Positions 6,019-31,187 of a stretch of 64,000 bases of DNA are shown piece by piece (positions within the stretch are counted from its first letter, which is position 1; the number at the start of each line of letters is the position of its first letter). Position numbers and translations under genes: made by a program. Source of the DNA: Nostoc sp. (GTDB lineage: Bacteria > Cyanobacteriota > Cyanobacteriia > Cyanobacteriales > Nostocaceae). Location of the stretch: positions 4,819-68,818 of the forward strand of contig NZ_JBALCE010000051.1 in the NCBI RefSeq assembly GCF_036919815.1, given 5' to 3'. The notes beneath the pieces were generated by a model. That model saw nothing but the letters and a program-made list of their open reading frames with translations. It was not told the DNA's origin and did no database searches.

Positions 6019-6068
6019 AAAAAAATTCAAAATTTCTTTATTTTGAATTTTGAATTTTGTTAGCGCAG

Positions 6069-6180
6069 CGTTAGCGAGTCTGCGTTCGCTTTTAGCGTCT
6101 GTCTTTGCTACGCAACGCTACCGCGAACGACACGCTGCGCGTAGCTTGTCCTCCGCCAGGAGTACGTAGAGAGCGTCATT
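6069..6180 (+). mobile_element. MITE-like composite of small dispersed repeats (copy A)
   Basis: The reverse complement is identical over its first 94 nt to 9655-9748. It is flanked by ttttgaa heptamers. Confidence 0.7.
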
Positions 6181-6192
6181 TTGAATTGAATT

Positions 6193-7359: not shown

Positions 7360-7499
7360 TTTGAACTGATTGCGGATAGAACTAAATGAAATCTTTCTTT
7401 ACAGCTTATTATCTCTAACTATATGAGTCTCATTCATCCTTCTAGTTTAGGAGTTAGACTAATCCCAATGGAGAATTTTGAACCGAAAGAGAACGGAGA

Positions 7500-7534
7500 G
7501 TGGGCTTGCCGTGAGCGTAGCCGAATGGGAGTGG
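7500..7534 (+). repeat. Dispersed 35-nt repeat (copy 2 of 3)
   Basis: Identical to 2481-2515. As in copy 1, it is followed by ggagaataataa and a heptamer array (atgcccc x3 at 7562-7582). Confidence 0.9.
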
Positions 7535-7575
7535 AGAGTGGCGAGCAAGGGGAGAATAATAATGCCCCATGCCCC

Positions 7576-7917
7576 ATGCCCAAAACACAATTGCTTTTAT
7601 ATTTGATTCCGATCATCGGCTTTTTTCCGTCCTTGTGGACTCTCTATCAAGGCCAGGGTAGTCGGGAACAACTTGCGATTAGTCGTCTGTCTATTACTTT
7701 GGCACTTATTTGGCTGTTGGGATATCTATTATTAGCTAGCGGAGCAGCAACTTCAGATTTTTTGACGCTACGTCTATTTATCCTCAATAGCTTTCTCACA
7801 TCGGGTTACTTTTTAGTGAGTGTCTGGTTGATTTTGCGGCTGATGCAGGGCAAATCTGGGCGTTTACCAGGCTTTAGTACTTTAGCAGAACGAGTGCTTG
7901 GCAAGTATTTATCTTAA
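7576..7917 (+). CDS. Small membrane protein (3-4 predicted TM helices), function unknown
   Basis: Hydrophobic segments LLLYLIPIIGFFPSLW, LALIWLLGYLLLA and FLTSGYFLVSVWLILRL. I start at ATG 7576 because the upstream part of ORF 7423-7917 is translated repeat DNA. Confidence 0.4.
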   Translation: MPKTQLLLYLIPIIGFFPSLWTLYQGQGSREQLAISRLSITLALIWLLGYLLLASGAATSDFLTLRLFILNSFLTSGYFLVSVWLILRLMQGKSGRLPGFSTLAERVLGKYLS

Positions 7918-8191
7918 TTGTTTCGGGTGATGATTTGCCAGTATTTTTACTTATTTCGTGAAAATTACGGTTGATTTATCCATAATATCTAGTCAAATCC
8001 AGTTTATTATTGCCATACTTCAGTAAAACATCTCCAGGTTGCCCCAAAAGAATGATAAATGCTGCTATAAGTGTTGTGGTTGACACGAGATTAAAAAAGT
8101 TAGCAGTGATAATTAAGAGTTAGCTATTATGAATTGATTTGTCAGCATATTTTTAGTCTGCAAATTTACCGAATTTGATTAGTGAGTAAGT

Positions 8192-9628
8192 GTGAGGAAG
8201 TCTGTGACCATTCAAAGAAGTTCGGCGGAAGAAAACCAGTCGGGAAAAGCCTCAAAGCCCAGTGACAAAATTTCCCAGAGCTCGAAATCAGGACGTTGGC
8301 TATGGTTTTGGGTAGGTATGAGTGGTATTGCAATGGTGTCAGCAACTGCGGGGGCGCTTTTGGCGGTGTCTTTGACTAGTACGCCTTTGCAACAAGCCCA
8401 GCTAAGTCCAAAGGATGAGGCGGTGTTTGATGGCGATCGCATCTCTGGAGGTGTGTTACGATTTTCAGAATTAACTCGCCCGGTGAATCTCTTAGTTATG
8501 GGGATGAGCGTACTTCCGCCGGATATCCAAAACCCTCCCCCAGAAACGAAAAACCTCAGATACCAGCCCCAGGTAAACTCCTTTGATGGTCTTTCGGATG
8601 TGATGCTCTTGCTCAAATTTGATCCAGAGACGAAAAAAATAATTATGCTCTCTATTCCCAGAGATACTCGCACAGAAATAGAGGGGTATGGGGTAAAAAA
8701 AATTAATGCTGCCAATGTTGACGGTGGACCAGCTTTGACTGCTAGAACCGTCAGTAATCTCTTGGGTGGGGCGGGAATTGATCGTTATGTCCGAATTAAC
8801 GTTCTGGGAGTTGCCAAGCTGATCGATGTTTTGGGTGGCGTCACAGTCTACGTCCCCAAAAATATGAAGTACCAAGATGATTCTCAGCATTTGTACATCA
8901 ATTTAAAGGCGGGTAAGCAGCATCTCAACGGCGATCAGACACTGCAATTGCTGCGTTTTCGCCATGACGAACTCGGTGATATTGGTCGGATTCAGCGCCA
9001 GCAAATGGTGATGCGGGCTTTGATGGATCAAACACTCAACCCAGCTACTGTTGCTCAATTACCTAAAGTTCTGGATGTAGTCAAAGACCACATCGATACC
9101 AATTTGACGGTTGAGGAGTTAGTGGCGCTAATGGGTTTTGGGGTGCGGACAAATCGCTCTAATATGCAAATGTTAATGCTCCCAGGTCGCTTTAGCGAGA
9201 AAGGTGAGTTTGATGCTAGCTATTGGTTGCCCAACAAAAATGGGATTGCGAAACTGATGGCTCAACATTTTGGTTTAGAGTCAGAACAGGAACAGCTGGC
9301 GACTACGGCTGACCTAGGCTCTTTGCGTGTAGCAATTCAAGATAGTACAGGTGGCGATCGCTCTAACCTGCGACCATTAATTAGAGCCTTGGAAAAATCT
9401 GGATATCGCAACATCTATGTCGCCAAAGCATGGGGTGAACCTCTAGAGGTAACTCACATTGTCGCCCAGCAAGGAGATGGTGACACTGCCGAATCAATTC
9501 GCAACACTTTGGGATTTGGAGAAGTGCGTGTGGAAAGTACTGGCAACCTTGCCTCGGATATCAGTATCCAAGTGGGTCAGGATTGGTTACAACAAAAATC
9601 TATTTTGGAGAAGTCGGGGACGAAATAA
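8192..9628 (+). CDS. LCP (LytR-CpsA-Psr) family cell-envelope protein
   Basis: N-terminal TM helix. The LCP core reads MLLKFDPETKKIIMLSIPRDTRTEIEGYG...INAA...GGPALTARTVSNLLG..IDRYVRINVLGVAKLIDVLGGVTVYVP. GTG start. Confidence 0.8.
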   Translation: MRKSVTIQRSSAEENQSGKASKPSDKISQSSKSGRWLWFWVGMSGIAMVSATAGALLAVSLTSTPLQQAQLSPKDEAVFDGDRISGGVLRFSELTRPVNLLVMGMSVLPPDIQNPPPETKNLRYQPQVNSFDGLSDVMLLLKFDPETKKIIMLSIPRDTRTEIEGYGVKKINAANVDGGPALTARTVSNLLGGAGIDRYVRINVLGVAKLIDVLGGVTVYVPKNMKYQDDSQHLYINLKAGKQHLNGDQTLQLLRFRHDELGDIGRIQRQQMVMRALMDQTLNPATVAQLPKVLDVVKDHIDTNLTVEELVALMGFGVRTNRSNMQMLMLPGRFSEKGEFDASYWLPNKNGIAKLMAQHFGLESEQEQLATTADLGSLRVAIQDSTGGDRSNLRPLIRALEKSGYRNIYVAKAWGEPLEVTHIVAQQGDGDTAESIRNTLGFGEVRVESTGNLASDISIQVGQDWLQQKSILEKSGTK

Positions 9629-9654
9629 TTCGTAATTCGTAATTCGTAATTCGT
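9627..9654 (+). repeat. STRR heptamer array (aattcgt x4) overlapping the LCP stop codon
   Basis: Four abutting units read directly. A partly palindromic cgtaattcgtaattaattacgaatt follows the MITE at 9787-9810. Confidence 0.9.
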
Positions 9655-9787
9655 AATGACGCTCTCTACGTACTCCTGGCGGAGGACAAGCTACGCGCAG
9701 CGTGTCGTTCGCGGTAGCGTTGCGTAGCAAAGACAGACGCTAAAAGCGTAGCTTGCAACTCTTACAGAGTACGCGGACTCGCTAACG
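9655..9787 (-). mobile_element. MITE-like composite repeat (copy B, inverted, with a nested 21-nt insertion)
   Basis: Same element as 6069-6180 in opposite orientation, plus an extra tagcttgcaactcttacagag at about 9749-9769. Confidence 0.7.
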
Positions 9788-16990: not shown

Positions 16991-17179
16991 TTAAAAGCTC
17001 AATGTTTAGTCTCAAAGGTGCAACTTCCGAGTTCAAAGGTGCAACTTCCGAGTTCAAAGGCTCAACCTCCGAGTTCAAAGGTGCAACTTCCGAGTTCAAA
17101 GGTGCAACTTCCGAGTTCAAAGGCTCAACCTCCGAGTTCAAAGGCTCAACTTCCGAGTTCAAAGGCTCAACTCCGACTT
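16991..17179 (+). repeat. 21-bp tandem repeat array (about 7 full units plus degenerate end units) between nirA and nrtP
   Basis: Units tcaaaggtgcaacttccgagt / tcaaaggctcaacctccgagt abut from 17012 to 17158. A degenerate unit lies at each end. Confidence 0.95.
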
Positions 17180-17212: not shown

Positions 17213-18715
17213 ATGCTTAAAAAATTATTTTCATTCAGCGATCGCTACCGCATCTTACATCAGACTTGGCTTGCTTTTTTTCTCACCTTTGTTTGTTGGT
17301 TTAACTTTGCTCCCTTCGCTACAACCATTGGCAGAGAGCTACATTTAGCGCCAGAGCAAATTAAAACTTTAGCTATCTGTAACCTTGCTCTCACAATTCC
17401 TGCACGGCTAATTATTGGGATGCTTCTGGATCGTTTTGGCCCCAGAATCACCTACTCAATGCTGTTGATGTTTGCGGTTGTTCCTTGTTTGGCGACGGCG
17501 CTAGCGCAAGATTTTAATCAATTAGTCATCAGTCGTTTGCTGATGGGAATTGTTGGATCTGGGTTTGTGGTTGGTATTCGGATGGTGGCGGAATGGTTCC
17601 AGCCGAAGGAGATGGGAATTGCTCAAGGTATTTATGGCGGCTGGGGTAACTTTGGGGCTTTTGGCGCAGAGTTTGCCTTACCGATGCTGGCAGTTTCTAC
17701 TAGCTTTTTCGCTGGTGGTGCTTCTAACTGGAGGTTTGCGATCGCACTCACAGGGATCATTGCAGCCATCTACGGCGTAATTTATTACAATAGCGTCCAA
17801 GATACGCCCGCAGGGAAAGTCTACAAGAAACCTCAGAAGAATGGTTCTCTGGAAGTGACCAGTATTAAAAGCTTCTGGGCGATGATTGTCTCAAATTTTG
17901 GCTTGATTTTCGCCTTGGGTTTATTAGCTTGGCGCTTGGAACAAAAGAACATTCACTTCCTGACTCTGAGCCAAATGTATTTTACTTGGTTGCTATTAGC
18001 AGGATTGTTTGCTTATCAAAGTTACAAAGCTTGGGAGGTAAACGGAGAACTTCTAATTGGCAAGAAAACTTACGCTCCATCGGAACGCTTCCAGTTTGGT
18101 CAAGTAGCTTTACTCGAATTTACTTACATAACTAGCTTTGGTAGCGAACTAGCAGTTGTTTCTATGCTCCCAGCATTTTTTGAAAAAACCTTTGCTTTAG
18201 AGCATGTCGTCGCTGGGATGATTGCCGCTACCTATCCCTTCTTAAATTTGGTTTCTCGTCCTAGTGGTGGCTTAATTTCTGATAAACTTGGCTCACGTAA
18301 ATGGACAATAACAATTATCACTGCTGGCATTGGTGTTAGTTATTTAATGGCACATTTTATTAGTAGTAGCTGGCCGATTCCGCTAGCGATCGCAGTTACA
18401 ATGTTTGCCGCTTACTTTGCCCAAGCTGGCTGCGGTGCAACCTACAGCATCGTACCTCTAATTAAGAAAGAAGCCACTGGACAAATTGCCGGTAATGTAG
18501 GAGCTTACGGTAATTTTGGCGGCGTAGTTTACCTAACAATTTTTAGCTTAACCGACGCTCCCACACTATTTAGCACAATGGGTATAGCTGCACTAATCTG
18601 CGCTTTTATGTGTGCCTTCTTCCTCAAAGAACCAAAAGGTTCCTTTGCCGCTACTTATGAAGGTGAATTACCAGAAACTGCAACTAAAAACCCTATTTTA
18701 TTAACCGAAGAATAA
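17213..18715 (+). CDS. nrtP: MFS nitrate/nitrite permease (NarK/NrtP type)
   Basis: 12-TM MFS protein with nitrate-signature motifs GGWGNFGA and AGNVGAYGNFGG. It lies directly after nirA, as in Nostoc punctiforme. Start at ATG 17213, because the upstream part of ORF 17018 is translated tandem repeat. Confidence 0.85.
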   Translation: MLKKLFSFSDRYRILHQTWLAFFLTFVCWFNFAPFATTIGRELHLAPEQIKTLAICNLALTIPARLIIGMLLDRFGPRITYSMLLMFAVVPCLATALAQDFNQLVISRLLMGIVGSGFVVGIRMVAEWFQPKEMGIAQGIYGGWGNFGAFGAEFALPMLAVSTSFFAGGASNWRFAIALTGIIAAIYGVIYYNSVQDTPAGKVYKKPQKNGSLEVTSIKSFWAMIVSNFGLIFALGLLAWRLEQKNIHFLTLSQMYFTWLLLAGLFAYQSYKAWEVNGELLIGKKTYAPSERFQFGQVALLEFTYITSFGSELAVVSMLPAFFEKTFALEHVVAGMIAATYPFLNLVSRPSGGLISDKLGSRKWTITIITAGIGVSYLMAHFISSSWPIPLAIAVTMFAAYFAQAGCGATYSIVPLIKKEATGQIAGNVGAYGNFGGVVYLTIFSLTDAPTLFSTMGIAALICAFMCAFFLKEPKGSFAATYEGELPETATKNPILLTEE

Positions 18716-18818
18716 TCAACCGAAGGATGAAGTAGTGAAATTAACTATCAGATTTAAATTAGGTAACTTTACACTTGATCCTTCTATAACAGTCCTCAAT
18801 ACAGTTAAGTTAAGCATT

Positions 18819-18872
18819 TCTTCCTTCTCTTCCTTCTCTTCCTTTGCGTACTTTGCGTACTTTGCGGTTCGT
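18819..18872 (+). repeat. Nonamer tandem repeats (ttccttctc x2-3, tttgcgtac x2-3)
   Basis: Read directly. They are part of the repeat-filled 440-nt gap that replaces most of narB. Confidence 0.85.
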
Positions 18873-19155
18873 TAAAAAAAATGACTTTGACAAAGAGTTA
18901 AGCCTTAACCCAAGCGCATTGTTCTATAGCAGTCCTAATTCATAAAAATCTCTTTTTCTTCTCTCTGCGGTTCGATAAAATCAGCTTTTTAGCGATTTTT
19001 GCGTAAGTTCTATTTATGAAAAAACGAACCGCATACTCCTACGGAGAAGCAAGCTACGCGCAGCGTCTCGTTAGAGAAGGACGCAAAGGACACAAAGTAA
19101 TAAGAGTTTCAAAGAGTTTTTCTGTAACACACAAAATTCTCAAACAGTCGCTACA

Positions 19156-19404
19156 AAAGCGAAGTTTCCTGCTAAAGTGACAAAAGCGATCGCGCCTGGT
19201 ACAGTTTTTGTCCCCATGCACTGGGGTTCGCTGTGGGCAGACAATGCCGAAGCTAACGCCCTCACCCATCCAGAATCTTGCCCCGATTCGCTGCAACCAG
19301 AATTAAAAGCTTGTGCAGTGCAGCTAATACCAATTTTGGTAGAAGTTACAATCAAAAATCATCAACTCCAGTCCTCACAATCGTCAGCTGCAAAGTGTAC
19401 CTAG
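19156..19404 (+). pseudogene. narB: 3' remnant of assimilatory nitrate reductase
   Basis: [55 protein letters not shown] matches the C-terminal molybdopterin-dinucleotide-binding domain of cyanobacterial NarB. Nothing NarB-like (e.g. the N-terminal Cys cluster) lies between 18716 and 19155. Confidence 0.65.
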
Positions 19405-20275: not shown

Positions 20276-20728
20276 GTGACAGATTTCTTTGAATTTGAAG
20301 CAGACTTTGTTGATTCTTTGCGTTGCATCCCCATGCAGGTGCGTTGCAAATTAGATACCTGTGGCATCAAGCTAAAATTGTCTGATTGGAATCAAATGAC
20401 TACAGCCGAGCGTCAAGCTTTAGTCGAATTACCTTGCACTACAGAAACCGAAATTCAGTCTTACGGCAACTATATCCAGGAGTTAATTGTACAACGCACA
20501 GGTATACCAGCAACAAAATTGCCCATTGAGCCTCATCCCGCATGGCTAGACTCTGCCACTGTACCAGCCAGCCTTCAGGAAAAAGCTCAAGAAATAGGTG
20601 TAACCCTGACACAGCAACATTGGGCAGCTTTAACGCCTTTACAGCGTTTTGCCTTGATTAAACTCAGCCACCCAGGACATGAAAACAAAAATTTTCCTAC
20701 AGCGATCGCAGAATTTCATTTACTTTAA
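20276..20728 (+). CDS. narM: Nitrate reductase-associated protein
   Basis: FEFEADFVDSLRCIPMQVRCKLDTCGIKLKLSDWNQM...ERQAL resembles the NarM / nitrate-reductase-associated family. GTG 20276 is preceded by ggagag. The ORF track starts at TTG 20261. Confidence 0.55.
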   Translation: MTDFFEFEADFVDSLRCIPMQVRCKLDTCGIKLKLSDWNQMTTAERQALVELPCTTETEIQSYGNYIQELIVQRTGIPATKLPIEPHPAWLDSATVPASLQEKAQEIGVTLTQQHWAALTPLQRFALIKLSHPGHENKNFPTAIAEFHLL

Positions 20729-21191
20729 TTAGTCAATAGTCATTAACAATCGCCTAGCGTGCCTTTGCCACTCCTTCGCAATTTTTCACTCGATTTCTAC
20801 TAAGACAAAACTAGTCAATTATCATCGGCAAAAATAACTGACAACAGACGACTGAAAATTATATATTTTGGGAATCAAACTAAATGCAGTAAAAACTACT
20901 ATTTTTTGATAAATTGTCGTGTGTTTAATTTAGCACTTAGAGTATTAAAAGTACACTACCGATACAATCGGATTCATCTGCGTAACAAGCCAAGTTGAGG
21001 ACAAACTATCACTAGATCGAATACTTATTCACATTAGGTAAAAGAATTTGAAATTTTGCATCTGGAAATTTTAAATTTCTTAGCAGGAAGTGAAGCTATA
21101 GTGGATTTAGCAATGCTGCTGTTAATGTGGCTAAGGTTAGTCCTGCTGCCAAATTATGTGAAGAATTAGTTTAGAAACGCACTTCTTATCG

Positions 21192-22574
21192 ATGACAGGC
21201 AAAAACGCAAGACATAATGCATTTCTGCGGCTAGTGTCTGGTAATGGGGCAGATTTGGGATCAGAATCTCGCTACTCGCTGCCCCCCAGTAAAGAAATGG
21301 TAATTGGACGCGATCCCAGCTGCCAAGTTGTCTTGGATGCCATGACCTACCGAATGGTATCTCGTCGTCATGCGGTGGTTCGTCCCCTTTCTCTATCTCC
21401 AGATAGCAAATTCAGCTGGGTGTTGTGTGATTTGAATAGTGCTAATGGTACTTATTTGAATGGACAACGCTTGTATGAATGTCAGGAATTGCACCCAGGC
21501 GATCGCATTTCTCTCGGTGCTGATGGCCCACAATACGTTTTTGAGTACGAGTTTACCTCAGTGACGCCGGCCACGACAGTTAACCAACTTACACCATTAC
21601 CTTCGGCGACGAACTACCACAACCACACGCAATTAAAGCAGCCAGATTCTGTTAGCTTTACCCAGCTTTTCCCGATTATTTCCACTGGTAAAGATTTAAC
21701 TCGGAAAGCTTACCTCATACCGGGAATACTGACCGTAATCTTTGTAGTGTTAATGTTTGCTACAGTCGGTCAGCCCCAAGCTAATCAAGTTATTGTCGCA
21801 ACTTACATCGCCTTCGCTGCCTACTATTTTGTTTACCAACTTTGCGGAAAACAGAAGCCTTGGTGGGTGCTAATAGCTGCGGCGTTGGGTACGATGCTGA
21901 TTTTGCTCAGTCCAGTGTTGGGTTTATTTATCTTCGTGTTTCGCGGCATCCTACCTGGAAACTTGCCCTCGTCCCAAGAATCTATTACCTTCACAGAGTT
22001 ACTGGTGCGGATGTTTTTTGGCGCTGGCTTGATGGAGGAATTACTCAAGGCATTGCCTGTACTAGGGGCTTTTGCCATCGGTAGAATGTTGTCTTCACCT
22101 TGGCGGGAACGTATAGGGGTTTGGGAACCTCTAGATGGTATTCTCCTGGGAACAGCTTCTGCTGTGGGCTTCACTCTCTTGGAAACTCTCGGACAATATG
22201 TGCCAGATATTACTCAAAATATATCGCAACAGGTGGGTACAGGGGCTGCGGGTCAACTGGCGGGTTTACAACTGCTAATTCCGCGAATTTTAGGCTCTGT
22301 AGCCGGACACATGGCTTATAGTGGCTATTTGGGTTATTTTATCGGGTTAGCTGTCCTCAAACCGAGGAGAAGTTGGCAAATTCTTTCTATTGGTTATCTT
22401 AGTGCCTCTGCGCTCCATGCTTTGTGGAATGCTACAGGATCAATCAATGCCTTGCTGTTGGTCGTTGTTGGGGTATTATCTTACGCCTTTTTGATGGCGG
22501 CAATTCTCAAGGCACGGGCGCTATCACCGACGCGATCGCAAAATTTTGCTACCCGATTTATTGGCCCAAAATAA
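21192..22574 (+). CDS. FHA domain fused to a PrsW-type intramembrane protease
   Basis: FHA: VIGRDPSCQVVLD...VSRRHAVV...LCDLNSANGTYLNGQRL...GDRISLG. Multi-TM C-terminal half with PrsW motifs GLMEELLKALP, GHMAYSGYLGYFIG and HALWN. Confidence 0.75.
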   Translation: MTGKNARHNAFLRLVSGNGADLGSESRYSLPPSKEMVIGRDPSCQVVLDAMTYRMVSRRHAVVRPLSLSPDSKFSWVLCDLNSANGTYLNGQRLYECQELHPGDRISLGADGPQYVFEYEFTSVTPATTVNQLTPLPSATNYHNHTQLKQPDSVSFTQLFPIISTGKDLTRKAYLIPGILTVIFVVLMFATVGQPQANQVIVATYIAFAAYYFVYQLCGKQKPWWVLIAAALGTMLILLSPVLGLFIFVFRGILPGNLPSSQESITFTELLVRMFFGAGLMEELLKALPVLGAFAIGRMLSSPWRERIGVWEPLDGILLGTASAVGFTLLETLGQYVPDITQNISQQVGTGAAGQLAGLQLLIPRILGSVAGHMAYSGYLGYFIGLAVLKPRRSWQILSIGYLSASALHALWNATGSINALLLVVVGVLSYAFLMAAILKARALSPTRSQNFATRFIGPK

Positions 22575-22600
22575 GAATTCAAAATTGTACCCTTACTCTT

Positions 22601-22743
22601 AAGCAAGCTACGCGTGGTCACTGAGCAGTTCGACAAGCTCACTGTGCCACCTTGCCGTACCACTTCCCTGCGGGACGCTGCGCGAACGTGGAAGCAAGCT
22701 ACGCGCAGCGTCTCGTAGAGAAGTGTAGCATCTCGTAGAAAAG
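22601..22743 (+). repeat. Composite of small dispersed repeats
   Basis: It contains gtggtcactgagcagttcgacaagctcactg (22614-22644) and gcgcagcgtctcgtagagaagtg (22703-22725). Both recur inside the GT2 coding sequence at 31754-31823. Confidence 0.85.
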
Positions 22744-23015
22744 AAAATGACAGTATTTATCTCTTGGGATAGATGGCCTAGTTTGAATATCAGCGTATCG
22801 TGAATTCATTCTGGGTTAACTATACCTACAAAAATAAAAATCATTAAGCTTGTTGCAAAAGTCTTGATTTTTGACTCTCCGTAAGGCAAACCAATATCTT
22901 TGCAAGATATGCCTCTGAACAGAGTAAGTGCAAAAGGCGAGCTTATGCGAACACAACCCATGATCAAAATTTTAGCTTTCTCTATTTTTCCTCTCACTTG
23001 TCACCTGTTGCCGAT

Positions 23016-23663
23016 TTATGGTTCCGACTGAGACTTGTTGAGTTGAGTCAAAGCATAGGAAGCGATCGCTAAACTAAGCTTTGCCTTCTCTACTTCTGAT
23101 AAAGCTGTCCACTCACTATTTTGAAAATTACTCATCGCCGATGCCGCGTTTTGCGATTCGCTACTTCGCATCGCGTAAGTAAAAGGACGAGCCAAAACTA
23201 AAAGATCCTCTGTTCCCCAAGTTGGTAGCACTGTCTGAACGCACTCAACCAGTTGCTCACCGATTAATTGTCCAGCAGCAAATATCTCAGCAGCTTTGCT
23301 AGCGATCGCGTTGAGCAATACTTGGGGGACAGAGGCAGAAAAAGTAGTACGTAATGTTTCTTGAAGATTAACCACTACTGCCTGTTGTTGGCTGTGATTG
23401 TCGTCTGGTGTAGAAGCAATACCAGACCAAAGTGTGTCTAGATGGCTGTAAAAATCTGGCGATTGCCTCGTCAGTTCTTCCTCAAGGAAATCTGGCATTC
23501 CGAACTGTTGTTCTAGTTCCTGAAAATAAGCTTCTGATTGCTCATCACCTGGATTCCAGGGATAGGTAGCATCCTCTGGTTCTAATAAGGCTTTTAAAAA
23601 CTCTAATTCTATTTGAGATGGCAAAGAAGAGAAAGTCTCTGAGCCGTTAATTTTTTTAGCCAT
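23016..23663 (-). CDS. Acidic hypothetical protein downstream of the CHAT-FHA gene
   Basis: 215-aa ORF on the same strand as the two upstream genes. No recognisable motifs. Confidence 0.45.
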   Translation of the reverse strand: MAKKINGSETFSSLPSQIELEFLKALLEPEDATYPWNPGDEQSEAYFQELEQQFGMPDFLEEELTRQSPDFYSHLDTLWSGIASTPDDNHSQQQAVVVNLQETLRTTFSASVPQVLLNAIASKAAEIFAAGQLIGEQLVECVQTVLPTWGTEDLLVLARPFTYAMRSSESQNAASAMSNFQNSEWTALSEVEKAKLSLAIASYALTQLNKSQSEP

Positions 23664-23784
23664 TTTTTATGCCTCAATATTATATGGTAGTATTGATAAC
23701 TACAATTCCTCAGAAGAGATTTCCGCAAAAACAGATTTCAAAAGCTGATGCTCAACATCAAAATCCATTTCTGCGATCGCTCTA

Positions 23785-25365
23785 CTAGGAGTCCTGAATA
23801 ATAAACTCCCAAGTTTCACCTCTGGCACTTCCAAACTTTAACTGCATCCCCGATTTCAAGGGGACTTCCTCTCGGAGGATTTGTTGCCAACCATTAAGTC
23901 CTAAAAACCAGGTTGTGCCGTAGGTGGAAAAATCTTGCAAGTAATAAGTTCGCATGAATGTAGCATCAGTAACAGTATTACGGCAGAAGATTTCGGCGTG
24001 GCGTTTGGATACAGATGGTTCGGGGATGACAATATCATTGTCGTTTGTGCGACCGATGCGGGTAACTCCATAACGCAACAACCAGGTTTTACCTTTTGGA
24101 GTCAGCGATCGCAAAGAAGCAGTTAGAAGCGGGGAACCTAGATCAGGAATGGCTGTGTCTGGTATTTCCGTAATACCTTCATCCAGATTCTTAATGAGTT
24201 CGCCATTAAAATCTGGATGCAGGTAGAGCACAGGCAAAGTCCAAGCCGGCTGATTAAATTTATACAATGTTAACAACTCTTGCCTAGCTTGTGCTACGGC
24301 TTCATCAATTGGTTTGTGCGATCGCAAAGCTTTGGTAAAGGCTTGAATAAAACTGTGGCTTTCGTGGTCAGCAATTTCATCGCGCATTCCCAAAACCGCA
24401 GGCACACCATGACGAATTAGTACTTCTGCTAAACTGCTGGTAGGTATGGCTTGATGATTCCTAGCAGCCGGTTGTGCGCCCCAACAGGCGTTAAAAACCG
24501 CTAGTTTCACACCTGTACGGGTGAGTACTTGCGCTAATTCTATCCCATTTAGGGGCATATCTGGTCGCAAAAATAGTAAGCCCCCATCTGGGTCTGGCAA
24601 ACCATGTCCAGCGTAAAAGAAAACATTGTATGCTTTGGTTTCTAATTCATCAATCAACTGCTGGGGAGTTGGTTGTAAGAGTTGATTCACTATACAAGGT
24701 GCATATCTTTGGGAATTACTACCCACGGACGTATCTGCAAGAATTTGCTGTAAGATTGCAGCTTCTTGTTCCAGTTGCAGGTTTTGATCATGACCTAAAA
24801 CCAGCAGGATAGTTAAAGCTTTGTCAGTTCCCAAATCCGGTAAGGCGTCAACTTCAGTGCTGGTGCGACTAAATAGCAAATCTGGGGAGAGAGACATAGC
24901 CGATTGACCCGGCTCAGACTGCATAATTTCCCAAGGGAAAGCGATAAGATTTGGGTCACGAATTTCTAGTCGAAAGCGCAAACGTGTATGCTGACCCATT
25001 GCAATACCGCGACTACGTTCTAGACTACCGAGAATTTGTCCGTCGAATACCCAGCGCCATAAATTCATTCCCAAGTATTGCATCAGACGACTGCTGTAGG
25101 GACTAGTGGTTTCACCTGAAGGGGGTGAAATCCAATCTATGGGCAATGGGTTGGCTTTTTGAGATATTGAGTTTGAGGAAATATCGAGGTGACTATGACC
25201 AGCAAACATCTGTTGCCATTCTTGCCAGACTTGGGTGAGTTCAGCAGGCCATACACAGTCACGTAAAACGTAGCCACTGGGATAGGGAGCCTCGACCACC
25301 CAAATGGCGAAGTTGTCAGTGCCAGTGTTTAAAAGACGGGCGATCGCCAAATTCAGGGATGGCAT
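23785..25365 (-). CDS. CHAT (caspase-like) protease domain fused to a C-terminal FHA domain
   Basis: Caspase-type dyad candidates FFYAGHG and VFNACWG. C-terminal FHA: TRIGRTNDNDIVI...VSKRHAEI...LQDFSTYGTTW...LKSGMQLKFG. Confidence 0.7.
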   Translation of the reverse strand: MPSLNLAIARLLNTGTDNFAIWVVEAPYPSGYVLRDCVWPAELTQVWQEWQQMFAGHSHLDISSNSISQKANPLPIDWISPPSGETTSPYSSRLMQYLGMNLWRWVFDGQILGSLERSRGIAMGQHTRLRFRLEIRDPNLIAFPWEIMQSEPGQSAMSLSPDLLFSRTSTEVDALPDLGTDKALTILLVLGHDQNLQLEQEAAILQQILADTSVGSNSQRYAPCIVNQLLQPTPQQLIDELETKAYNVFFYAGHGLPDPDGGLLFLRPDMPLNGIELAQVLTRTGVKLAVFNACWGAQPAARNHQAIPTSSLAEVLIRHGVPAVLGMRDEIADHESHSFIQAFTKALRSHKPIDEAVAQARQELLTLYKFNQPAWTLPVLYLHPDFNGELIKNLDEGITEIPDTAIPDLGSPLLTASLRSLTPKGKTWLLRYGVTRIGRTNDNDIVIPEPSVSKRHAEIFCRNTVTDATFMRTYYLQDFSTYGTTWFLGLNGWQQILREEVPLKSGMQLKFGSARGETWEFIIQDS

Positions 25366-25544
25366 GGATTCATTAAATTAAAAGCTTAAAATAAATAATT
25401 TCAAATAACAATTCTCCAAAGTGAAAATTTTCTACTTTTTGACCTTGTAAATTTTTACTCTGGTTGTTACCTGTTATTATTCCAGGTTTTTACAAGTTTA
25501 TCGAGCTGTTAAGGACTGACAAATAAAAAAATACTCAACTATTG

Positions 25545-25676
25545 CTTGTGGGGTGGGCAGCGTTCGACTGAGCGCTCACGCCGTACCCCTCCGGGGAAGC
25601 AAGCTACGCGTAGCGTCCCGCAGGGAAAGTCTTGCCCGCCTTTTGCTATGGGCGCTCGTGTCGCCCACCCCACAAG
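25545..25676. mobile_element. MITE-like element with 14-nt terminal inverted repeats
   Basis: Terminal repeats cttgtggggtgggc (25545-25558) and gcccaccccacaag (25663-25676). The internal 65 nt (25560-25624) recur inverted at 37691-37755 with 2 mismatches. Confidence 0.75.
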
Positions 25677-25712
25677 TAGTAGTAATTTATTTATTGGAAA
25701 TCCCTTATTTGA

Positions 25713-27989
25713 TTAAGTTGGACTGGTGTCAGGTGCAGTTGGTTGAGTAACTGGCGGTTGCGTGACACTTCTACATGGATTTGGTGCGTCTGATTGTAAA
25801 ACAGAGACGCCAAAACTCTTCAATTGGGACAAGTTCAGCGATAGTGTTGCTGGCAAAGGTTTTGGATTTTGGGGAACCGAGATAATTACTGCTGGGTTAT
25901 TAGTATTAGCTGAACTTTGTGTGCTTTTATTGGCACAGACTCGCATAGACACCGAAAAATCCTCAGAAGCAGGTTGGGGATTTGATTTTTTCTGAATAAC
26001 TTCTAAAAAAGTCCCACGGGGAAGTGATTGGTTGTTTCCGAAGGGGATTTCTTTGTTGGTTTTAATTACCCAACCAGGAGAAAGGTTAGCAAGCGATCGC
26101 GCTGTGGGTGTCGCTTCGATGGTAGGATTTAGAGTTGGTGTGGGATTGGAAACAAGTGGAAATATCCCTGATGGCGATCGCAGTTGCTTCACGAAGAATC
26201 CTAAAGTCCCTGCTGCGATCACAAATATTAACGGAACTATCCACTGTAGCGGCAATTGGCGAGTTTTGATCGGCTCCTTTTCGGGAATCACCTGAGTTTT
26301 ATGGTTTGCGCTACCTAAAAGTGTCGGATCTGTCGCTCTGGACGGGAAATCAATAGCTTTCGGGGAATAACTCTCTGTAATCACTGCTTTAATGGTGATT
26401 TCTGGTTCCCAGTATTGGACTTGATAGTGGACTAAAGCGACGGTGACATTATCGTGTCCATTTTTAGTATTAGCGATTTCGACTAATCTATCGGCAACAT
26501 TTACTATATTTGTCTCCCCAAGCAGAATCGGTAAAATTTCTGTTTCCCAGCACTCCTCCACCCGATCAAAATCACTCAAACCATCGGATGTGAGCAGAAA
26601 AACAGCATCTTCATCGAGCATAAACCGTCCCGAAGTGGGATGCAATGAAGTGCTGGAACCCATCCCCAAAGCCTGAACCAGAGAGCCAGCAGCACTCTGT
26701 TGCACAGCCTCGCGGTAAATCGCATAACCTAGCCGCACTTCGCGGGAGGCGACATCATCATCAAGGGTAACTTGATAACAGCCGTGGCGTGTAATCCAGT
26801 AGGCACGACTATCACCAACATGGGTAATGTACATTTCGTGTGCAACAGGCAAGGCCATGACTAAAGTCGTACCCATGCGTTGACGCCCTTGGCGATTTTC
26901 AGCGTCATTGCGCTGACTAATTTTGTCGTTGGCAATTGCCACTGCCTTTTCTAGGTCATCAAGCAGCAGTGAAGGGTCTATGTGGTCGTAGGGAACTTTT
27001 GTTAGTTGCTGTACCTGCTGCTGAATCGTTTCAATCGCTAAATTTGAGGCGACATTGCCGCCCTCGTGTCCACCGATGCCATCACAGACAATTGCTAAGG
27101 CTGTTGGCTGGGGTGGTTTGCTGACCAGAATACCACTGGGTGGGCTACAGGCATCTTCGTTACGTTGGCGACTTGGGCCAGTCTCAGTTTTGGTGATAAT
27201 TTTGATCGTAGGTGTTTGCGATCGCCCTAACCCAGCCAGTCCCCGATCTAAAACTCCGATTAATTGATCCGTTGAATTCATCTCTCCCTGAATTAAGGAA
27301 AGGCTAACCTGATCAACAAATTCAGCTATAGCTGGTTTGGTATCACTGACCAACTGCTGCCAAAATTCACCTAATTGGGGCAACTCTGGTGATGTTGCGA
27401 CATCGAAACGCAAATCCAACAAACGTACTAATGATCCTTCTACCCGTAATACGTATGAGTCAAGTAAGCTAGAGGCGACACCTTCACTCGTCAGAGGTTG
27501 CCACAAATGAGCTATTTGCCATAACCAATTGAGTTGGCGCATTGATGTTGCATCACGCCAAGCGGTGGTTAACTCGCTACACAAATGCACTTGTTGGATT
27601 GTGTCATCTACTAATAGTGGCGGTTTTTCTAAGAGTAATATTTCTCGATGCTCAGTTCCGTCACCTACAAAAAGCACTCCATATAACTGCGGTACGTGTA
27701 AGCGGTAAGGAATAAGTCTCAAGTAAGCTTTGGGGATCTGGAGATTATCTAACTCAGGCGTTAGGGCTAATAAACCAGGCTTCGTATCTAAAAGAACAAA
27801 TTTGTCAAGGACTAAATAGCGATCGGCTAATATTTCTCCAGGGCTACCCACACTCGGGCCATCTACCACAGCCCAGAGGTAATTTTTGGGTAGGGGCGTG
27901 GAACATCGCTGGCAAAACTTGTGAGTCAGGGGGTTAGCAGCCTGACAATTTTCATTTGGACAGTAGAGCGTTGCCGCGTCATTTTCCAT
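25713..27989 (-). CDS. Zn-ribbon / PP2C Ser-Thr phosphatase / TM / Pro-Thr-rich tail protein
   Basis: N-terminal CPNENC...CQRC zinc ribbon. PP2C motifs IVCDGIGGHEGG, GTTLVMAL, HVGDSRAY, LLTSDGLSD and NGHDNVTVALV. One TM helix (WIVPLIFVIAAGTLGFFV). Confidence 0.8.
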   Translation of the reverse strand: MENDAATLYCPNENCQAANPLTHKFCQRCSTPLPKNYLWAVVDGPSVGSPGEILADRYLVLDKFVLLDTKPGLLALTPELDNLQIPKAYLRLIPYRLHVPQLYGVLFVGDGTEHREILLLEKPPLLVDDTIQQVHLCSELTTAWRDATSMRQLNWLWQIAHLWQPLTSEGVASSLLDSYVLRVEGSLVRLLDLRFDVATSPELPQLGEFWQQLVSDTKPAIAEFVDQVSLSLIQGEMNSTDQLIGVLDRGLAGLGRSQTPTIKIITKTETGPSRQRNEDACSPPSGILVSKPPQPTALAIVCDGIGGHEGGNVASNLAIETIQQQVQQLTKVPYDHIDPSLLLDDLEKAVAIANDKISQRNDAENRQGRQRMGTTLVMALPVAHEMYITHVGDSRAYWITRHGCYQVTLDDDVASREVRLGYAIYREAVQQSAAGSLVQALGMGSSTSLHPTSGRFMLDEDAVFLLTSDGLSDFDRVEECWETEILPILLGETNIVNVADRLVEIANTKNGHDNVTVALVHYQVQYWEPEITIKAVITESYSPKAIDFPSRATDPTLLGSANHKTQVIPEKEPIKTRQLPLQWIVPLIFVIAAGTLGFFVKQLRSPSGIFPLVSNPTPTLNPTIEATPTARSLANLSPGWVIKTNKEIPFGNNQSLPRGTFLEVIQKKSNPQPASEDFSVSMRVCANKSTQSSANTNNPAVIISVPQNPKPLPATLSLNLSQLKSFGVSVLQSDAPNPCRSVTQPPVTQPTAPDTSPT

Positions 27990-28562
27990 AGTTTTCCCAC
28001 CGATCAGCGATTGGCAATTTCTTTAACAGCATTAGTAGGGACAATCTAGACCGCTCATCTTTCTGAAATTTGACATACCCAGACTTTAGATGATGATTTT
28101 AGCTGGCGGATATCAGCAGGTGCTAATGCTTATTTATCCAAAGAATACGCTCCCAACTCAACCCGACAGCCTGATCATAGCTTCTATTGCTCTGTGACTC
28201 TCCATCAATAAAGCAACTAACTCCAACCCTGTCCCCAAAGCATAACCCAAGCATGACTATGTTATTTGCTTTTGCTGAATTACCCCATCATCAACAGACA
28301 GATAATGTTGGTATTTATTTAGTTTATAAGTAGGATAGCAACAATTAACTTTAATTAAGAATTAAGATAATTGAATATACTTTTGCCTAAAGTACCTGAC
28401 GAATCAAGAAAACCTCTCTTCTTCATCTCTCTCCTTGTAGGAGAGAGACTTTGAATGTTCTTCCTTAGAGCGTCGGCAAGGGGGTTAGGTTTTTGTTTGG
28501 GCTGATTCCGGATGACCGGAATTGTCACAAGGGTTCAGCCAGCCCGCTACCAACTATTGAGC

Positions 28563-28922
28563 TTATTGTTTGTCGTCAATTGCAACTTGGGGGACTCCCA
28601 TGCTGTAGTTAGTAACGCGGGCAGAGAGATTGTAGCTGAGTTCGCCGATTTGCAGGAGCGATCGCAGATAATGCTCTAAGTCTGACCCCACACGGCGTAA
28701 GTTATATTCTGTGAGGTCTACGCCACTAGATGCTTCTACTAGTTCATCAAATTTTCGGTAAACCTTTTGCAGCGCATCTTCATTCCAGTTAAATTCGTTA
28801 TCTGGGTCAATATCTAAGGTTAAAACCTGTTGACTAGGAATCAGTTCGCCATCCCGGTCAATTTCGCCTGCAAAAATGCGGACATGCCGGGTTGTGGACT
28901 TGAGCAACATTGGGTTATCCAT
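28563..28922 (-). CDS. ndhM: NAD(P)H-quinone oxidoreductase (NDH-1) subunit M
   Basis: MLLKSTTRHVRIFAGEI...LTLDIDPDNEFNWNEDALQKVYRKFDELV...DLTEYNLRRVGSDLE matches NdhM. The true start may be the second ATG (28910). Confidence 0.85.
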   Translation of the reverse strand: MDNPMLLKSTTRHVRIFAGEIDRDGELIPSQQVLTLDIDPDNEFNWNEDALQKVYRKFDELVEASSGVDLTEYNLRRVGSDLEHYLRSLLQIGELSYNLSARVTNYSMGVPQVAIDDKQ

Positions 28923-29774
28923 AAAAGGGTGTAAGTATTTGGGTGGATTACACTGAAATTATTGTAGACGTTATATCTGAAGCTTGAATGCTCTCAATTT
29001 ACAGCAGCTTTGAACAGTTTCAAAAGAGTATATTGAATGGGCATAAGTAAAAATATCACCTGTACTGATTAACTTAATACTTCTGTTAAGAGTTGAAGAC
29101 AAGGCTAACTGCTAGTACTGACAGTAGTCTAATTATTTTTCTGTAAAAATTACTGGCTAGAGTCTTTTTATTTAGGGTACTAATCTTACCTACTGCTAAG
29201 ATTTTTGGATTCATCAAGCCCAAAAGACAGTAGGGGCAGGCACTTGGCAGGAATAATTTGATCTGAGTACATTTTTTAATGGAGAACAAAAATTTTTACT
29301 TTAATAATTATAATCAGAAATTTATTCGGAATTTGCTGCTGATAAAAACGTACATCAAGTAATTTTACGGAATAGCGCTACATCGACCACTGGCTTTAAT
29401 AAACTCAAAAAACTTAAGCGGTTTTACTTACGTATAAACACCAAAATTAGAGTAACAAGTAAAACTCTTGTTGACGTTAACATAAAGTTGATGTAAAAAG
29501 GTTTAAAAAAGTCGAGCAACTTCTTACAGAAACTTTATTGTGTAGAATTTTAAAAACTGAATAATAGTTATGGCTTACCATAAGCTATATCTGGCACAGG
29601 AGCATCAAAATCTACCTTGAAAAAAAATACAGGAGAGTGAAATGGGATACAAAGGTGATTGATGAAGAAAAAGTCTTAATTGAAGCATTTTGGATTCAAA
29701 AAAGATATAAAGAATTTTGCTGGACATCTACCTCTTTAGCCTCATGACCACCAAGTAAAGGAATCTCAATAGCT

Positions 29775-30059: not shown

Positions 30060-30355
30060 AGGTGTAATTTAAGTAGTTAAACAATGTGAATTGGGCATCA
30101 AAATCAAATATTGATCCCATACTTGCGTTGCCATAAAAACTTAGCAGTAAGTAGAATTCATAAAATATTGTGATTTCTACTTTGTGAAAGTCTTATTTAG
30201 CAGTACAAAGTCCCAGAAACAGTTTCCGCTATTAAAAACTTTGTAGCAAAGAGTACTGGTAGAATCTGAGAGCAAATTCAGCCGGGTGCATTTTACCGAG
30301 TTTTTATCAAAACATTGCAGGAATAACAAAACCCTGTGTCTTTACAGATGGGGAA

Positions 30356-30427
30356 AGGGAGACAAGGGAGATAAGGGAGATAAGGGAGATAAGGGAGATA
30401 AGGGAGATAAGGGAGATAAGGGAGATA
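30356..30427 (+). repeat. Nonamer tandem array (agggagata x8)
   Basis: Eight abutting 9-nt units, followed by caatgcc heptamers. It lies in the convergent gap 3' of the response regulator gene. Confidence 0.95.
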
Positions 30428-30491
30428 AAGAGAAAATAACCAATGCCCAATGCCCAATACTTCGACTTCGCTCAGTACAAGTGCCCAATGC

Positions 30492-31187
30492 CTATTTAGC
30501 AAGACCGTGTTCTAGGGCAAAACGAACTAACTCTGTACGGCTACTGGTGCCAGTTTTACTAAATAAACGGCTGACGTACTTTTCTACATTACGGACGCTG
30601 GTTTCTAAGCGACGGGCGATTTCTTTGTTCATCAACCCTTCAGCGACTAAGTTCAAAACACTTTGTTCTCTGGGAGTCAAATCAATTTTGAAAGGGGCTG
30701 GCGATTGGGAAATGGCATTTCTTTGAGTTAACAATGCCTTAATTTGGGCAATCTGATTGGCTAGTTCGGCAAGATCGGGGGTTTCAGCGTCATCTCCGGT
30801 ACTTGCGGACTTAGCGGCGCGGCGGGCTAGCAAATTTTCAACTATAGCCACTAACTCGTCGGGATCGAAGGGTTTGGGTAGATAGGCGTCAACACCAGCA
30901 TGATAGCCTTGGATGCGATCGCCTGTCATACCTTTGGCAGTTAAAAATACTACCGGGAGTGCTTGGAAGCGGGGGTCTTCTCGTAGTTGCTTAAGGAACT
31001 GATAGCCATCTACCTGAGGCATCATCACATCAGAAATCACTAAATCAGGTGTATTCAGCTGCATCCATTCCCAACCTTCAAGGGCGTTACTGGCGACTTG
31101 AACGCTGAAACCGCTCTCTTGCAAATAGTCTTTCACGGCTTCCCGTATCCCTGGTTCATCATCCACCAGTAACAATTGTGCTGACAT
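30492..31187 (-). CDS. Response regulator, NarL/FixJ (LuxR-type HTH) family
   Basis: Receiver domain LLVDDEPGIREAV...DLVISDVMMPQVDG...FLTAKG...KPF. C-terminal HTH LTPREQSVLNLVAEGLMNKEIARRLETSVRNVEKYVSRLFSK. Confidence 0.85.
   Translation of the reverse strand: MSAQLLLVDDEPGIREAVKDYLQESGFSVQVASNALEGWEWMQLNTPDLVISDVMMPQVDGYQFLKQLREDPRFQALPVVFLTAKGMTGDRIQGYHAGVDAYLPKPFDPDELVAIVENLLARRAAKSASTGDDAETPDLAELANQIAQIKALLTQRNAISQSPAPFKIDLTPREQSVLNLVAEGLMNKEIARRLETSVRNVEKYVSRLFSKTGTSSRTELVRFALEHGLAK

Follow-up and report, generated by a model that had tools for sequence, protein, structure and literature searches.

Why should two proteases of different classes each carry an FHA domain, the kind of domain that reads phosphothreonine (pThr), and be encoded beside a phosphatase that could erase such marks? 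The question is raised by a gene cluster in a 64-kb stretch of DNA from Nostoc sp. (assembly GCF_036919815.1, contig NZ_JBALCE010000051.1, forward-strand positions 4,819–68,818), the whole of which is referred to here as the window. The cluster consists of genes for a membrane-anchored PP2C phosphatase, a CHAT-family cysteine protease with a C-terminal FHA domain (CHAT-FHA), a 215-aa acidic protein (acid215), and a PrsW-family membrane protease with an N-terminal FHA domain (FHA-PrsW). Together they point to an uncharacterised pathway of phosphorylation-controlled proteolysis, and we give slightly better than an even chance to the reading that they form one conserved cyanobacterial Ser/Thr-phosphorylation signalling module, in which the readers and outputs are proteases.

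All four open reading frames (ORFs) proposed in the original prediction were recovered (Table 1), and its assignments of FHA plus PrsW, CHAT plus FHA, and PP2C domains were confirmed with hidden Markov models (HMMs), every domain scoring above its Pfam cut-off (PrsW-protease 23.5, FHA 20.7, CHAT 24, PP2C_2 24 and PP2C 20.3 bits); the fold of CHAT-FHA was also supported by structure prediction. The motifs that it had singled out, EELLK, HALWN, AGHG and NACWG, were all found and are conserved. It had named loss of the catalytic or pThr-binding residues as a reason to abandon the idea, and the catalytic residues and most of the pThr-binding residues proved to be conserved. Its same-strand layout had to be corrected: FHA-PrsW is a plus-strand gene that runs towards the 3' end of the acid215 gene, from which it is separated by 441 bp, and the other three genes all lie on the minus strand, with gaps of 347 bp between PP2C and CHAT-FHA and of 121 bp between CHAT-FHA and acid215; FHA-PrsW therefore cannot share a transcript with them. 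Taken as a whole, the earlier interpretation is partly supported.

CHAT-FHA represents a sharply defined, pan-cyanobacterial family, present in at least 578 GTDB species genomes and found in Nostocales (71–97% identity across the order), Gloeothece, Crocosphaera, Spirulina, Lusitaniella, Neosynechococcus, Leptolyngbyaceae, Oculatellaceae, Coleofasciculus, Okeania and Limnoraphis. Full-length relatives extend down to about 43% identity, and the next tier is made up of HetF-like proteins of 750–1000 aa that match only residues ~80–400 and have no matching FHA domain. The nearest NCBIfam model to the CHAT part is that of HetF (NF045509; E = 1.6e-41), with residues 97–395 aligned to model positions 72–388 of 836 at 142.5 bits, against an equivalog cut-off of 1200. 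On these scores the family is paralogous to HetF and is not HetF itself; one source labels a member 'putative HetF', and CHAT plus FHA is already annotated as an architecture in databases. The predicted catalytic residues, His254 in AGHG (252–255) and Cys294 in NACWG (292–296), are invariant in an alignment of 72 family members with 49–90% identity to the window protein (A7), and also in alignments A1 and A2. Within the FHA domain Gly438, Ser453, His456, Ser480 and Gly483 are invariant in the 72 sequences, and Arg439 and Thr484 are kept in at least 90%. Four of the five canonical residues of the pThr pocket are retained, and Tyr482 occupies the Asn position. The STYGT sequence at this point had been flagged in the original prediction, NG being usual there; it is a trait of the whole family, in which S[TR][YF]GT replaces SxNGT, every lineage examined having Tyr or Phe where the canonical Asn would stand.

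An AlphaFold2 model of CHAT-FHA built on the 72-sequence alignment had a mean confidence (pLDDT) of 79.7 and a predicted template-modelling score (pTM) of 0.69, the low-confidence parts being residues 56–87 and the linker between the two domains (395–412, pLDDT below 50). A Foldseek search of the PDB with this model ranked human and fungal separase first, followed by the TPR-CHAT protease Csx29, SAVED-CHAT and the CHAT-containing anti-sigma factor DdvA, with E values of 9e-11 to 1e-8 for the best neighbours, and with a probability of 1.00 for separase, Csx29 and SAVED-CHAT; sequence identity to the separase and Csx29 structures is 8–18%. Residues ~1–400, including the conserved N-terminal 134, superpose on the separase protease domain and on Csx29, and the modelled C-terminal domain matches the pThr-binding FHA structures of Dun1, MDC1, EmbR and Mek1 (template-modelling scores, TMt, of 0.6–0.83). 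This FHA domain also has a weak NCBIfam match to the TagH model. Thr399 and Pro402 in the linker are invariant in the 72 sequences, and by analogy with GarA the Thr in this disordered segment could support an intramolecular pThr–FHA switch. HetF acts on the HetR pathway, and in a single case, a Symploca/Coleofasciculus-like metagenome contig (L167), hetR (6064–6963; Peptidase_S48 and HetR_C) was observed two genes upstream of CHAT-FHA (8001–9650).

FHA-PrsW combines its two domains in the opposite order. The FHA match (PF00498) spans residues 37–109, and the pThr-pocket motifs GR (40–41), SRRHA (57–61) and SANGT (83–87) are conserved in 16 diverse orthologues drawn from Nostocales and distant lineages; judged by these residues the pocket is fully canonical. 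The PrsW-protease profile (PF13367) is matched over its full length (1–196), the motifs EELLK (282–286), GHMAYSGY (372–379) and HALWN (409–413, in LHALWN) are invariant in the same 16 sequences, and a hydropathy scan gives at least five transmembrane (TM) segments. With 16.7 bits against a cut-off of 225 for the Bacillus-type PrsW equivalog (NF033739), the protein is best described as a member of the PrsW family and not as an orthologue of the RsiW site-1 protease. Its FHA domain has weak NCBIfam matches to the FhaB/FipA (E = 1.7e-11), OdhI and TagH models. Two cytoplasmic segments are near-invariant even in distant lineages, one juxtamembrane at residues ~145–170 (window 21600–21700; SFTQLFPIISTGKDLTRKAYLIP) and one forming the C-terminal tail (22527–22571; ILKARALSPTRSQNFATRF), and the conserved Ser and Thr residues in both could be regulatory or phosphosite candidates. 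Fusions of FHA with PrsW were noted earlier as probable 'signaling peptidases', by prediction only (Zhang et al. 2012, PMC3482391).

The phosphatase has all of the PP2C metal-site motifs (RQRNED 274–279, DGIGGH 303–308, MGTT, GDSR 392–395, SDGLSD 468–473 and GHDNVT 511–516), and its sequence matches in the PDB include tPphA, Stp1 and PstP, with E values down to 1.9e-18. It falls below the NCBIfam equivalog cut-offs of PRK14559 (NF011149; 248 bits against 374) and Stp1/IreP (NF033484; 155.5 against 230). The Zn-ribbon, PP2C domain and TM helix that had been described for it all stand, but the supposed Pro/Thr-rich tail turned out to be a linker followed by a two-cysteine domain, and a conserved domain at residues 35–262 had been missed. 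The latter gave no Pfam match in 12 orthologues and no PDB sequence match. By eye it seemed collinear with the kinases of neighbouring genomes, and a pseudokinase was considered but found no support: a PDB profile search was empty, Pfam returned Zn-ribbons only, and hhalign against the kinase alignment matched the Zn-ribbon only, the probability being 0.6% once the Zn-ribbon was removed. The single hydropathy peak corresponds to one TM helix, and the two C-terminal Cys are conserved in nearly all orthologues; the domain that carries them is presumably an extracytoplasmic (periplasmic) sensor. The TM helix and C-terminal module evolve fast, with 33–91% identity within Nostocales.

Amid the otherwise variable linker on the cytoplasmic side of the phosphatase, 13–17 residues before the TM helix, lies a motif [KQD]-T-x-[VLI]-[ILVM], present as the strict pattern in 92 of 103 distinct orthologues and, by eye, in most of the remainder. 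Many FHA domains prefer pT-x-x-(I/L/V), and because of this preference its Thr565 is a candidate FHA docking site. There is a precedent in mycobacteria, where the membrane PP2C PstP is itself a target of phosphorylation by its partner kinases (PMC3052367).

The last member, acid215, had no match in Pfam, NCBIfam or PADLOC, and the 120 homologues among the matches listed were all unnamed or 'hypothetical protein'. Homologues share an isoelectric point of 4.0–4.4, the motifs YPWNP and LARPxAYAMR, and a C-terminal helix W..LS..EQAR. From its position beside CHAT-FHA and by analogy with separase and Csx29, each of which has a small partner of its own as inhibitor or substrate (securin and Csx30, respectively), it is the likeliest candidate for a substrate or inhibitor of CHAT-FHA.

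Are these genes neighbours by chance or by function? The 80 best genome loci for CHAT-FHA all come from close Nostoc relatives that share the entire ~20 kb in collinear order, conserved housekeeping genes included; since collinearity of this kind is uninformative on functional linkage, distant members were sampled through a profile of non-Nostocales sequences (A3) and individual locus look-ups, and neighbouring genes were scored with phmmer on six-frame ORFs in loci with enough flank. The order PP2C, CHAT-FHA, acid215 and convergent FHA-PrsW is found in 96 of 97 Nostocales-like loci. Taken gene by gene, acid215 immediately follows CHAT-FHA in 109/109 Nostocales-like and in 38/49 distant loci, PP2C lies directly upstream in 101/102 and 12/37, and FHA-PrsW is adjacent and convergent in 101/101 and 8/34. 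The original prediction had asked whether adjacency of PP2C, CHAT-FHA and FHA-PrsW is kept across cyanobacteria, and it is, far beyond Nostoc. It had also pictured a cluster of three equals with acid215 as a bystander, and here the picture changes: the linkage is real for all members but graded, acid215 being tighter than PP2C and PP2C tighter than FHA-PrsW, so that CHAT-FHA and acid215, the supposed bystander, make up the tightest pair.

The complete cluster, with order and orientation preserved, was found outside Nostocales in at least seven mutually divergent lineages whose other flanks differ (loci L089, L092, L105, L106, L107, L119/L120, L130 and L156). Among these loci the CHAT sequences are 54–70% identical to one another, and they lie nearest to sequences of Allocoleopsis and Leptolyngbyaceae type; narM, which adjoins FHA-PrsW in Nostocales loci, is absent, and the acid215 and FHA-PrsW ORF ends are 3–96 bp apart or overlapping. 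In 25 distant loci with both flanks available, 13 had acid215 only, 6 the full set, 2 PP2C and acid215, 1 PP2C only and 3 none. FHA-PrsW was beside CHAT-FHA in 6 of the 9 that had PP2C, against 0 of the 16 that did not, an association with a hypergeometric probability of ~5e-4 without correction for phylogeny.

A signalling module of this kind calls for a kinase as well. The original prediction saw no Ser/Thr kinase in the window, and none was found when it was searched by tblastn with a kinase of a neighbouring genome, nor when its six-frame ORFs were all scanned with a kinase HMM (E ≤ 10). Some relatives may supply the missing 'writer': in Calothrix NIES-2100 (L082), Aliinostoc (L078) and Anabaena minutissima (L079) a Ser/Thr kinase gene stands between PP2C and CHAT-FHA. 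Its product consists of a Zn-ribbon, a kinase domain, a Pro-rich linker, a TM helix and a two-Cys domain, an order that repeats the phosphatase scaffold around another catalytic core. The Zn-ribbons of the two enzymes are homologous (hhalign probability 95.9% over 28 columns), and the TM plus C-terminal modules are 36–77% identical within a locus, against 27–43% between orthologous phosphatases of different genomes. Nostoc sp. T09 (L075) has a different gene inserted, for a C14 caspase with coiled-coil repeats, and again its module is 60% identical to that of the adjacent phosphatase. This likeness within loci points to module exchange, gene conversion or concerted evolution, and suggests either a common extracytoplasmic cue for the opposing enzymes or their pairing by way of the shared domain.

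These parts and their conserved arrangement can be assembled into a scheme. The original prediction had spoken of a phosphorylation-gated proteolytic switch, and while its parts, residues and adjacency have held up, the switch itself is what we infer, along with each biochemical step in it, its phosphosites and substrates, and its role in physiology. The eraser would be the membrane-anchored phosphatase, with its Zn-ribbon, 35–262 domain and PP2C domain in the cytoplasm, one TM helix, and a two-cysteine sensor outside. The writer would be a Hanks-type kinase built on the same scaffold of Zn-ribbon, TM helix and sensor, encoded within the cluster by some genomes and presumably at another site by the present one. 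The readers would be the two FHA domains, one on the soluble, separase/HetF-like CHAT protease and the other on the membrane protease PrsW. In a first step the kinase would phosphorylate Thr residues, candidates being Thr565 in the juxtamembrane K-T-x-V-I of the phosphatase and Thr399 in the CHAT-FHA linker; the FHA domains would then dock on these marks, so recruiting or unlocking the proteases at a membrane signalling complex; the proteases would cut their targets, acid215 being the likeliest candidate for substrate or inhibitor of CHAT-FHA; and PP2C would finally reset the system. A bolder version, which we think quite unlikely to hold in full, is that CHAT-FHA and acid215 are a separase/securin-like or Csx29/Csx30-like pair set by pThr, that TM kinase and phosphatase with interchangeable sensor modules write and erase a juxtamembrane mark read by the FHA domains of both proteases, and that one external cue is thereby turned into irreversible proteolysis at two sites, controlling a core process such as division or differentiation.

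Several observations weigh against a single module. The literature search on the cluster genes found no paper or functional work. An in-cluster kinase is present in only 3 of 110 Nostocales-like loci, and there is none in the 64-kb window. The FHA domain of CHAT-FHA lacks the canonical Asn, which leaves its binding of pThr putative; Thr565 and Thr399 are candidates read from sequence alone. For acid215 there is no invariant Thr in the alignment, its proposed role follows only from adjacency and the analogy with separase–securin and Csx29–Csx30, and its AlphaFold2 model (53 homologues) is unreliable, being all-helical with a pLDDT of 48.5 and an N-terminal half below 50, which may reflect disorder. 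PP2C is missing in 25 of 37 distant loci, for example in Gloeothece PCC 7424 and Limnoraphis, so that CHAT-FHA must work without an adjacent phosphatase in many cyanobacteria. In three loci (L153, L154 and L139) PP2C and CHAT-FHA are ~3.4 kb apart, and in L153 the gap (6694–9682) holds three ORFs on the opposite strand, which on visual inspection resemble an ABC transporter for sugars, with a binding protein and two permeases; co-transcription of the two genes is therefore not obligatory, and in L153 at least they need separate promoters. A promoter and terminator scan of 20700–29200 gave counts of 17 against 13.3 ± 3.4 and of 13 against 8.7 ± 3.1 in shuffled sequences, which is not above the shuffles, and so is uninformative on operon structure.

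The most serious of the alternatives, possible though unlikely in our view, divides the locus into two units, with PP2C, CHAT-FHA and acid215 (or just the last two) as the module, and FHA-PrsW as an independent, phospho-regulated neighbour of long standing. FHA-PrsW is transcribed convergently from the opposite strand, and it is not adjacent to CHAT-FHA in 26 of 34 distant loci, both of which also count against the single module, while acid215 is present in 38 of 49. Spirulina major, Neosynechococcus, Lusitaniella and two further loci (L138 and L152) have PP2C and CHAT-FHA, with or without acid215, and no FHA-PrsW within 7–10 kb. An equally persistent neighbour is ndhM, which has no obvious functional link: it is upstream of PP2C in 93 of 94 Nostocales-like loci and 8 of 9 distant loci with PP2C, and is found there also in Spirulina major, Lusitaniella, Leptolyngbyaceae and Allocoleopsis (L084, L168, L169 and L170, besides distant metagenome loci). 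Its membership in the system is doubtful, and its persistence means that ancient neighbours can remain together here without evident functional reason. FHA-PrsW fusions occur, moreover, in many bacteria outside the present gene context (PMC3482391). What speaks for keeping FHA-PrsW in the module is that the tight convergent arrangement has been preserved in lineages so divergent in CHAT sequence and otherwise different in their flanks, that in none of the 16 distant loci without PP2C is it beside CHAT-FHA, and that both proteases bear the same kind of reader domain.

A second alternative shares its parts with the single-module reading and differs in logic, the FHA domains being scaffolding and not a switch. 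The cluster would then be a regulator with a housekeeping role in cell division, in growth of the envelope or in differentiation, a counterpart of the actinobacterial FhaA/FhaB–PstP–PknA/PknB system, in which CHAT-FHA is HetF-like, the FHA domains are tethers and proteolysis is constitutive. The HetF model ('cell division protein HetF') as the best family match of the CHAT domain, the strong conservation of CHAT-FHA over so many species genomes, and the hetR gene near CHAT-FHA in the one metagenome contig all agree with it. Against this, CHAT-FHA is also found in the unicellular, non-heterocystous Gloeothece, Crocosphaera and Neosynechococcus, and the cluster contains no divisome or peptidoglycan genes; we judge this alternative distinctly improbable. 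The Anabaena PP2C phosphatases PrpJ1/2 and All1758 reportedly affect heterocyst envelope and cell size; their orthology to the cluster phosphatase is a possible lead, and the listing of cluster members did not include the orthologue from PCC 7120. Highly improbable, finally, is an anti-phage or conflict system in which signalling would set off a CHAT protease effector, on the model of Craspase or SAVED-CHAT CBASS: Csx29 of the type III-E Craspase and the SAVED-CHAT filaments are among the closest solved structures, and cleavage by Csx29 of an adjacently encoded small protein parallels the CHAT-FHA/acid215 adjacency, but none of the four cluster proteins had a PADLOC-DB match, neither the ORFs examined (15–36 kb) nor the listed genes of related loci included any cas gene or gene for making a nucleotide signal, the housekeeping collinearity over ~20 kb in the 80 Nostoc-like loci and the deep adjacency are unlike defence islands, and the GC (guanine plus cytosine) content of the cluster is like that of the remainder of the window.

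Table 1. Features of the cluster in the window (window coordinates), its upstream neighbour, and loci of relatives that share the sensor module (coordinates of each locus)
Feature	Position	Strand	Basis
FHA-PrsW membrane protease gene, 460 aa	21192..22574	+	ORF; Pfam PrsW-protease 131 bits, FHA 65.3 bits
N-terminal cytoplasmic FHA domain of FHA-PrsW, residues 14–112	21231..21527	+	Conserved GR, SRRHA, SANGT
Multi-TM PrsW protease domain, residues ~160–445	21669..22526	+	Pfam residues 222–438; invariant motifs; hydropathy
acid215, 215-aa acidic protein	23016..23663	-	ORF; adjacency to CHAT-FHA
CHAT-FHA cysteine protease gene, 526 aa	23785..25365	-	Pfam CHAT (PF12770) 73.8 bits, FHA 53.6 bits
C-terminal FHA domain of CHAT-FHA, residues ~413–526, Asn replaced by Tyr482	23788..24129	-	Pfam; residues; modelled fold
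Thr399 codon (ITEIP), CHAT-FHA interdomain linker, candidate phosphosite	24169..24171	-	Invariance; role inferred
Conserved N-terminal domain (residues 1–134) and caspase-like CHAT domain (135–395)	24181..25365	-	Catalytic His254/Cys294 (predicted)
Membrane sensor PP2C phosphatase gene, 758 aa	25713..27989	-	Pfam PP2C_2 (PF13672) 40.3 bits, PP2C (PF00481) 33.7 bits
TM helix (582–600), Pro/Thr-rich linker and two-cysteine C-terminal domain (601–758)	25716..26246	-	Hydropathy; conserved Cys
Thr565 codon in juxtamembrane K-T-Q-V-I, candidate pThr docking site	26295..26297	-	Motif conservation; role inferred
PP2C catalytic domain, residues 263–525	26415..27203	-	Pfam, NCBIfam and PDB sequence matches; motifs
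Conserved cytoplasmic domain of unknown fold, residues 35–262	27204..27887	-	Conserved in 12 diverse orthologues (alignment A4)
N-terminal Zn-ribbon, residues 8–34	27888..27968	-	Pfam DZR / Zn_Ribbon_1 in 11/12 and 9/12 orthologues
ndhM (NDH-1 subunit M)	28563..28922	-	Pfam NdhM 174 bits; upstream of PP2C, same strand
Loci sharing the TM and two-cysteine module	L078 5376–7592, 8278–9759; L082 5011–7302, 7681–9276; L079; L075 4489–6786, 7628–9799		

Some features of the window outside the cluster may be recorded here. Between nrtP and psiE lies a remnant of the nitrate reductase gene narB (19156–19371, plus strand), of which only the last ~72 codons are detectable. A full-length narB occupies the same place in the closest relative (L001) and in L081 and L082, and window positions 18351–19156 have no counterpart in L001. 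Assimilatory nitrate reductase may have been lost at the narB locus in the present strain, nirA, nrtP and narM being kept. A 21-bp tandem repeat between nirA and nrtP (17012–17176; 7.9 copies, 92% matches) gives QLPSSK[VA] repeats in the mechanically called nrtP ORF, the real start of which is probably Met66, for a protein of ~500 aa as in L081 and L082. A 9-bp tandem repeat, AAGGGAGAT (30355–30428; 8.2 copies), encodes a (GDK)n run in an ORF at 30286–30726 (plus strand) that is probably spurious; this ORF overlaps the 3' part of an opposite-strand response-regulator gene, and the repeat is just downstream of the stop of that gene (30492). An Rfam scan of 18–32 kb found no RNA family.

What would the single-module reading add to what is known? 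Bacterial development relies heavily on both reversible Ser/Thr phosphorylation and regulated proteolysis, and a phospho-reader domain built into a protease would couple them directly, in a manner barely studied in bacteria. Conservation in so many species genomes makes a core cyanobacterial function likely, and the matched sensor modules on kinase, phosphatase and caspase at one locus would, if they act as supposed, put opposing enzymes under the control of one extracellular input. Should the proteases act independently, the finding comes down to the correct annotation of four conserved genes. Signalling by FHA, PP2C and kinase, FHA-PrsW fusions and the CHAT plus FHA architecture are already known, so that the system is not conceptually unprecedented. 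The literature search found no report of the conserved cluster, of the acidic partner or of a sensor module shared by kinase and phosphatase, and, as the original prediction had supposed, searches on CHAT, FHA and cyanobacteria (or on CHAT, FHA, PP2C and caspase) brought up no described system with this composition.

Modules of FHA, PP2C and Hanks-type kinase are a classical theme, known for example from mycobacterial division and the activation of type VI secretion systems (T6SS). In the actinobacterial locus fhaA-fhaB-pstP-rodA-pbpA-pknA-pknB, a membrane PP2C with an extracytoplasmic part is likewise clustered with FHA proteins and with TM Hanks-type kinases (the latter, in the present case, only in some relatives), and there the phosphatase is itself a kinase substrate (PMC3052367). 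The cyanobacterial cluster differs in that its FHA domains are fused to proteases and are not stand-alone adaptors, rodA and pbpA are absent, the kinase is usually outside the cluster, and the phosphatase has an added Zn-ribbon and a 230-aa domain of unknown fold. The T6SS threonine-phosphorylation pathway PpkA–PppA–Fha1/TagH (named in PMC6213207) follows the same logic of kinase, PP2C and FHA reader at the membrane, and the FHA domains of both proteases match TagH weakly; here, in contrast, there are no T6SS genes, and the output is proteases instead of a secretion apparatus.

The two proteases can be compared with better-known relatives. HetF, a CHAT protease on which heterocystous cyanobacteria depend for cell division and for the differentiation of heterocysts, is the closest sequence family of the CHAT domain, from which CHAT-FHA is set apart by its score far below the HetF cut-off, by the greater length of the HetF-like tier and its lack of a matching FHA domain, and by its own occurrence in unicellular cyanobacteria. 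PrsW of Bacillus subtilis, the site-1 protease of the anti-sigma factor RsiW, belongs to the same Pfam family, has the EExxK, H and HxxxN motifs, and is a membrane-embedded signalling protease; FHA-PrsW differs from it in the added N-terminal FHA domain, and no sigma/anti-sigma pair was seen among the adjacent ORFs. The FHA switches GarA and OdhI resemble CHAT-FHA in placing an FHA domain beside a flexible segment with a conserved Thr (here Thr399), except that this Thr is in the interdomain linker of a protease and not in the N-terminal tail of a metabolic regulator, and that the switch is hypothetical here. The closest structural parallels to the CHAT-FHA model are separase–securin, in which cleavage is promoted by phosphorylation of the substrate, and Csx29–Csx30, and the small, acidic product of the adjacent gene may extend the likeness to acid215, although its role as a partner is putative. 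Unlike separase and Craspase, CHAT-FHA comes without a TPR/ARM superstructure, Cas7-11 or cohesin, and has its phospho-reader built into the protease itself.

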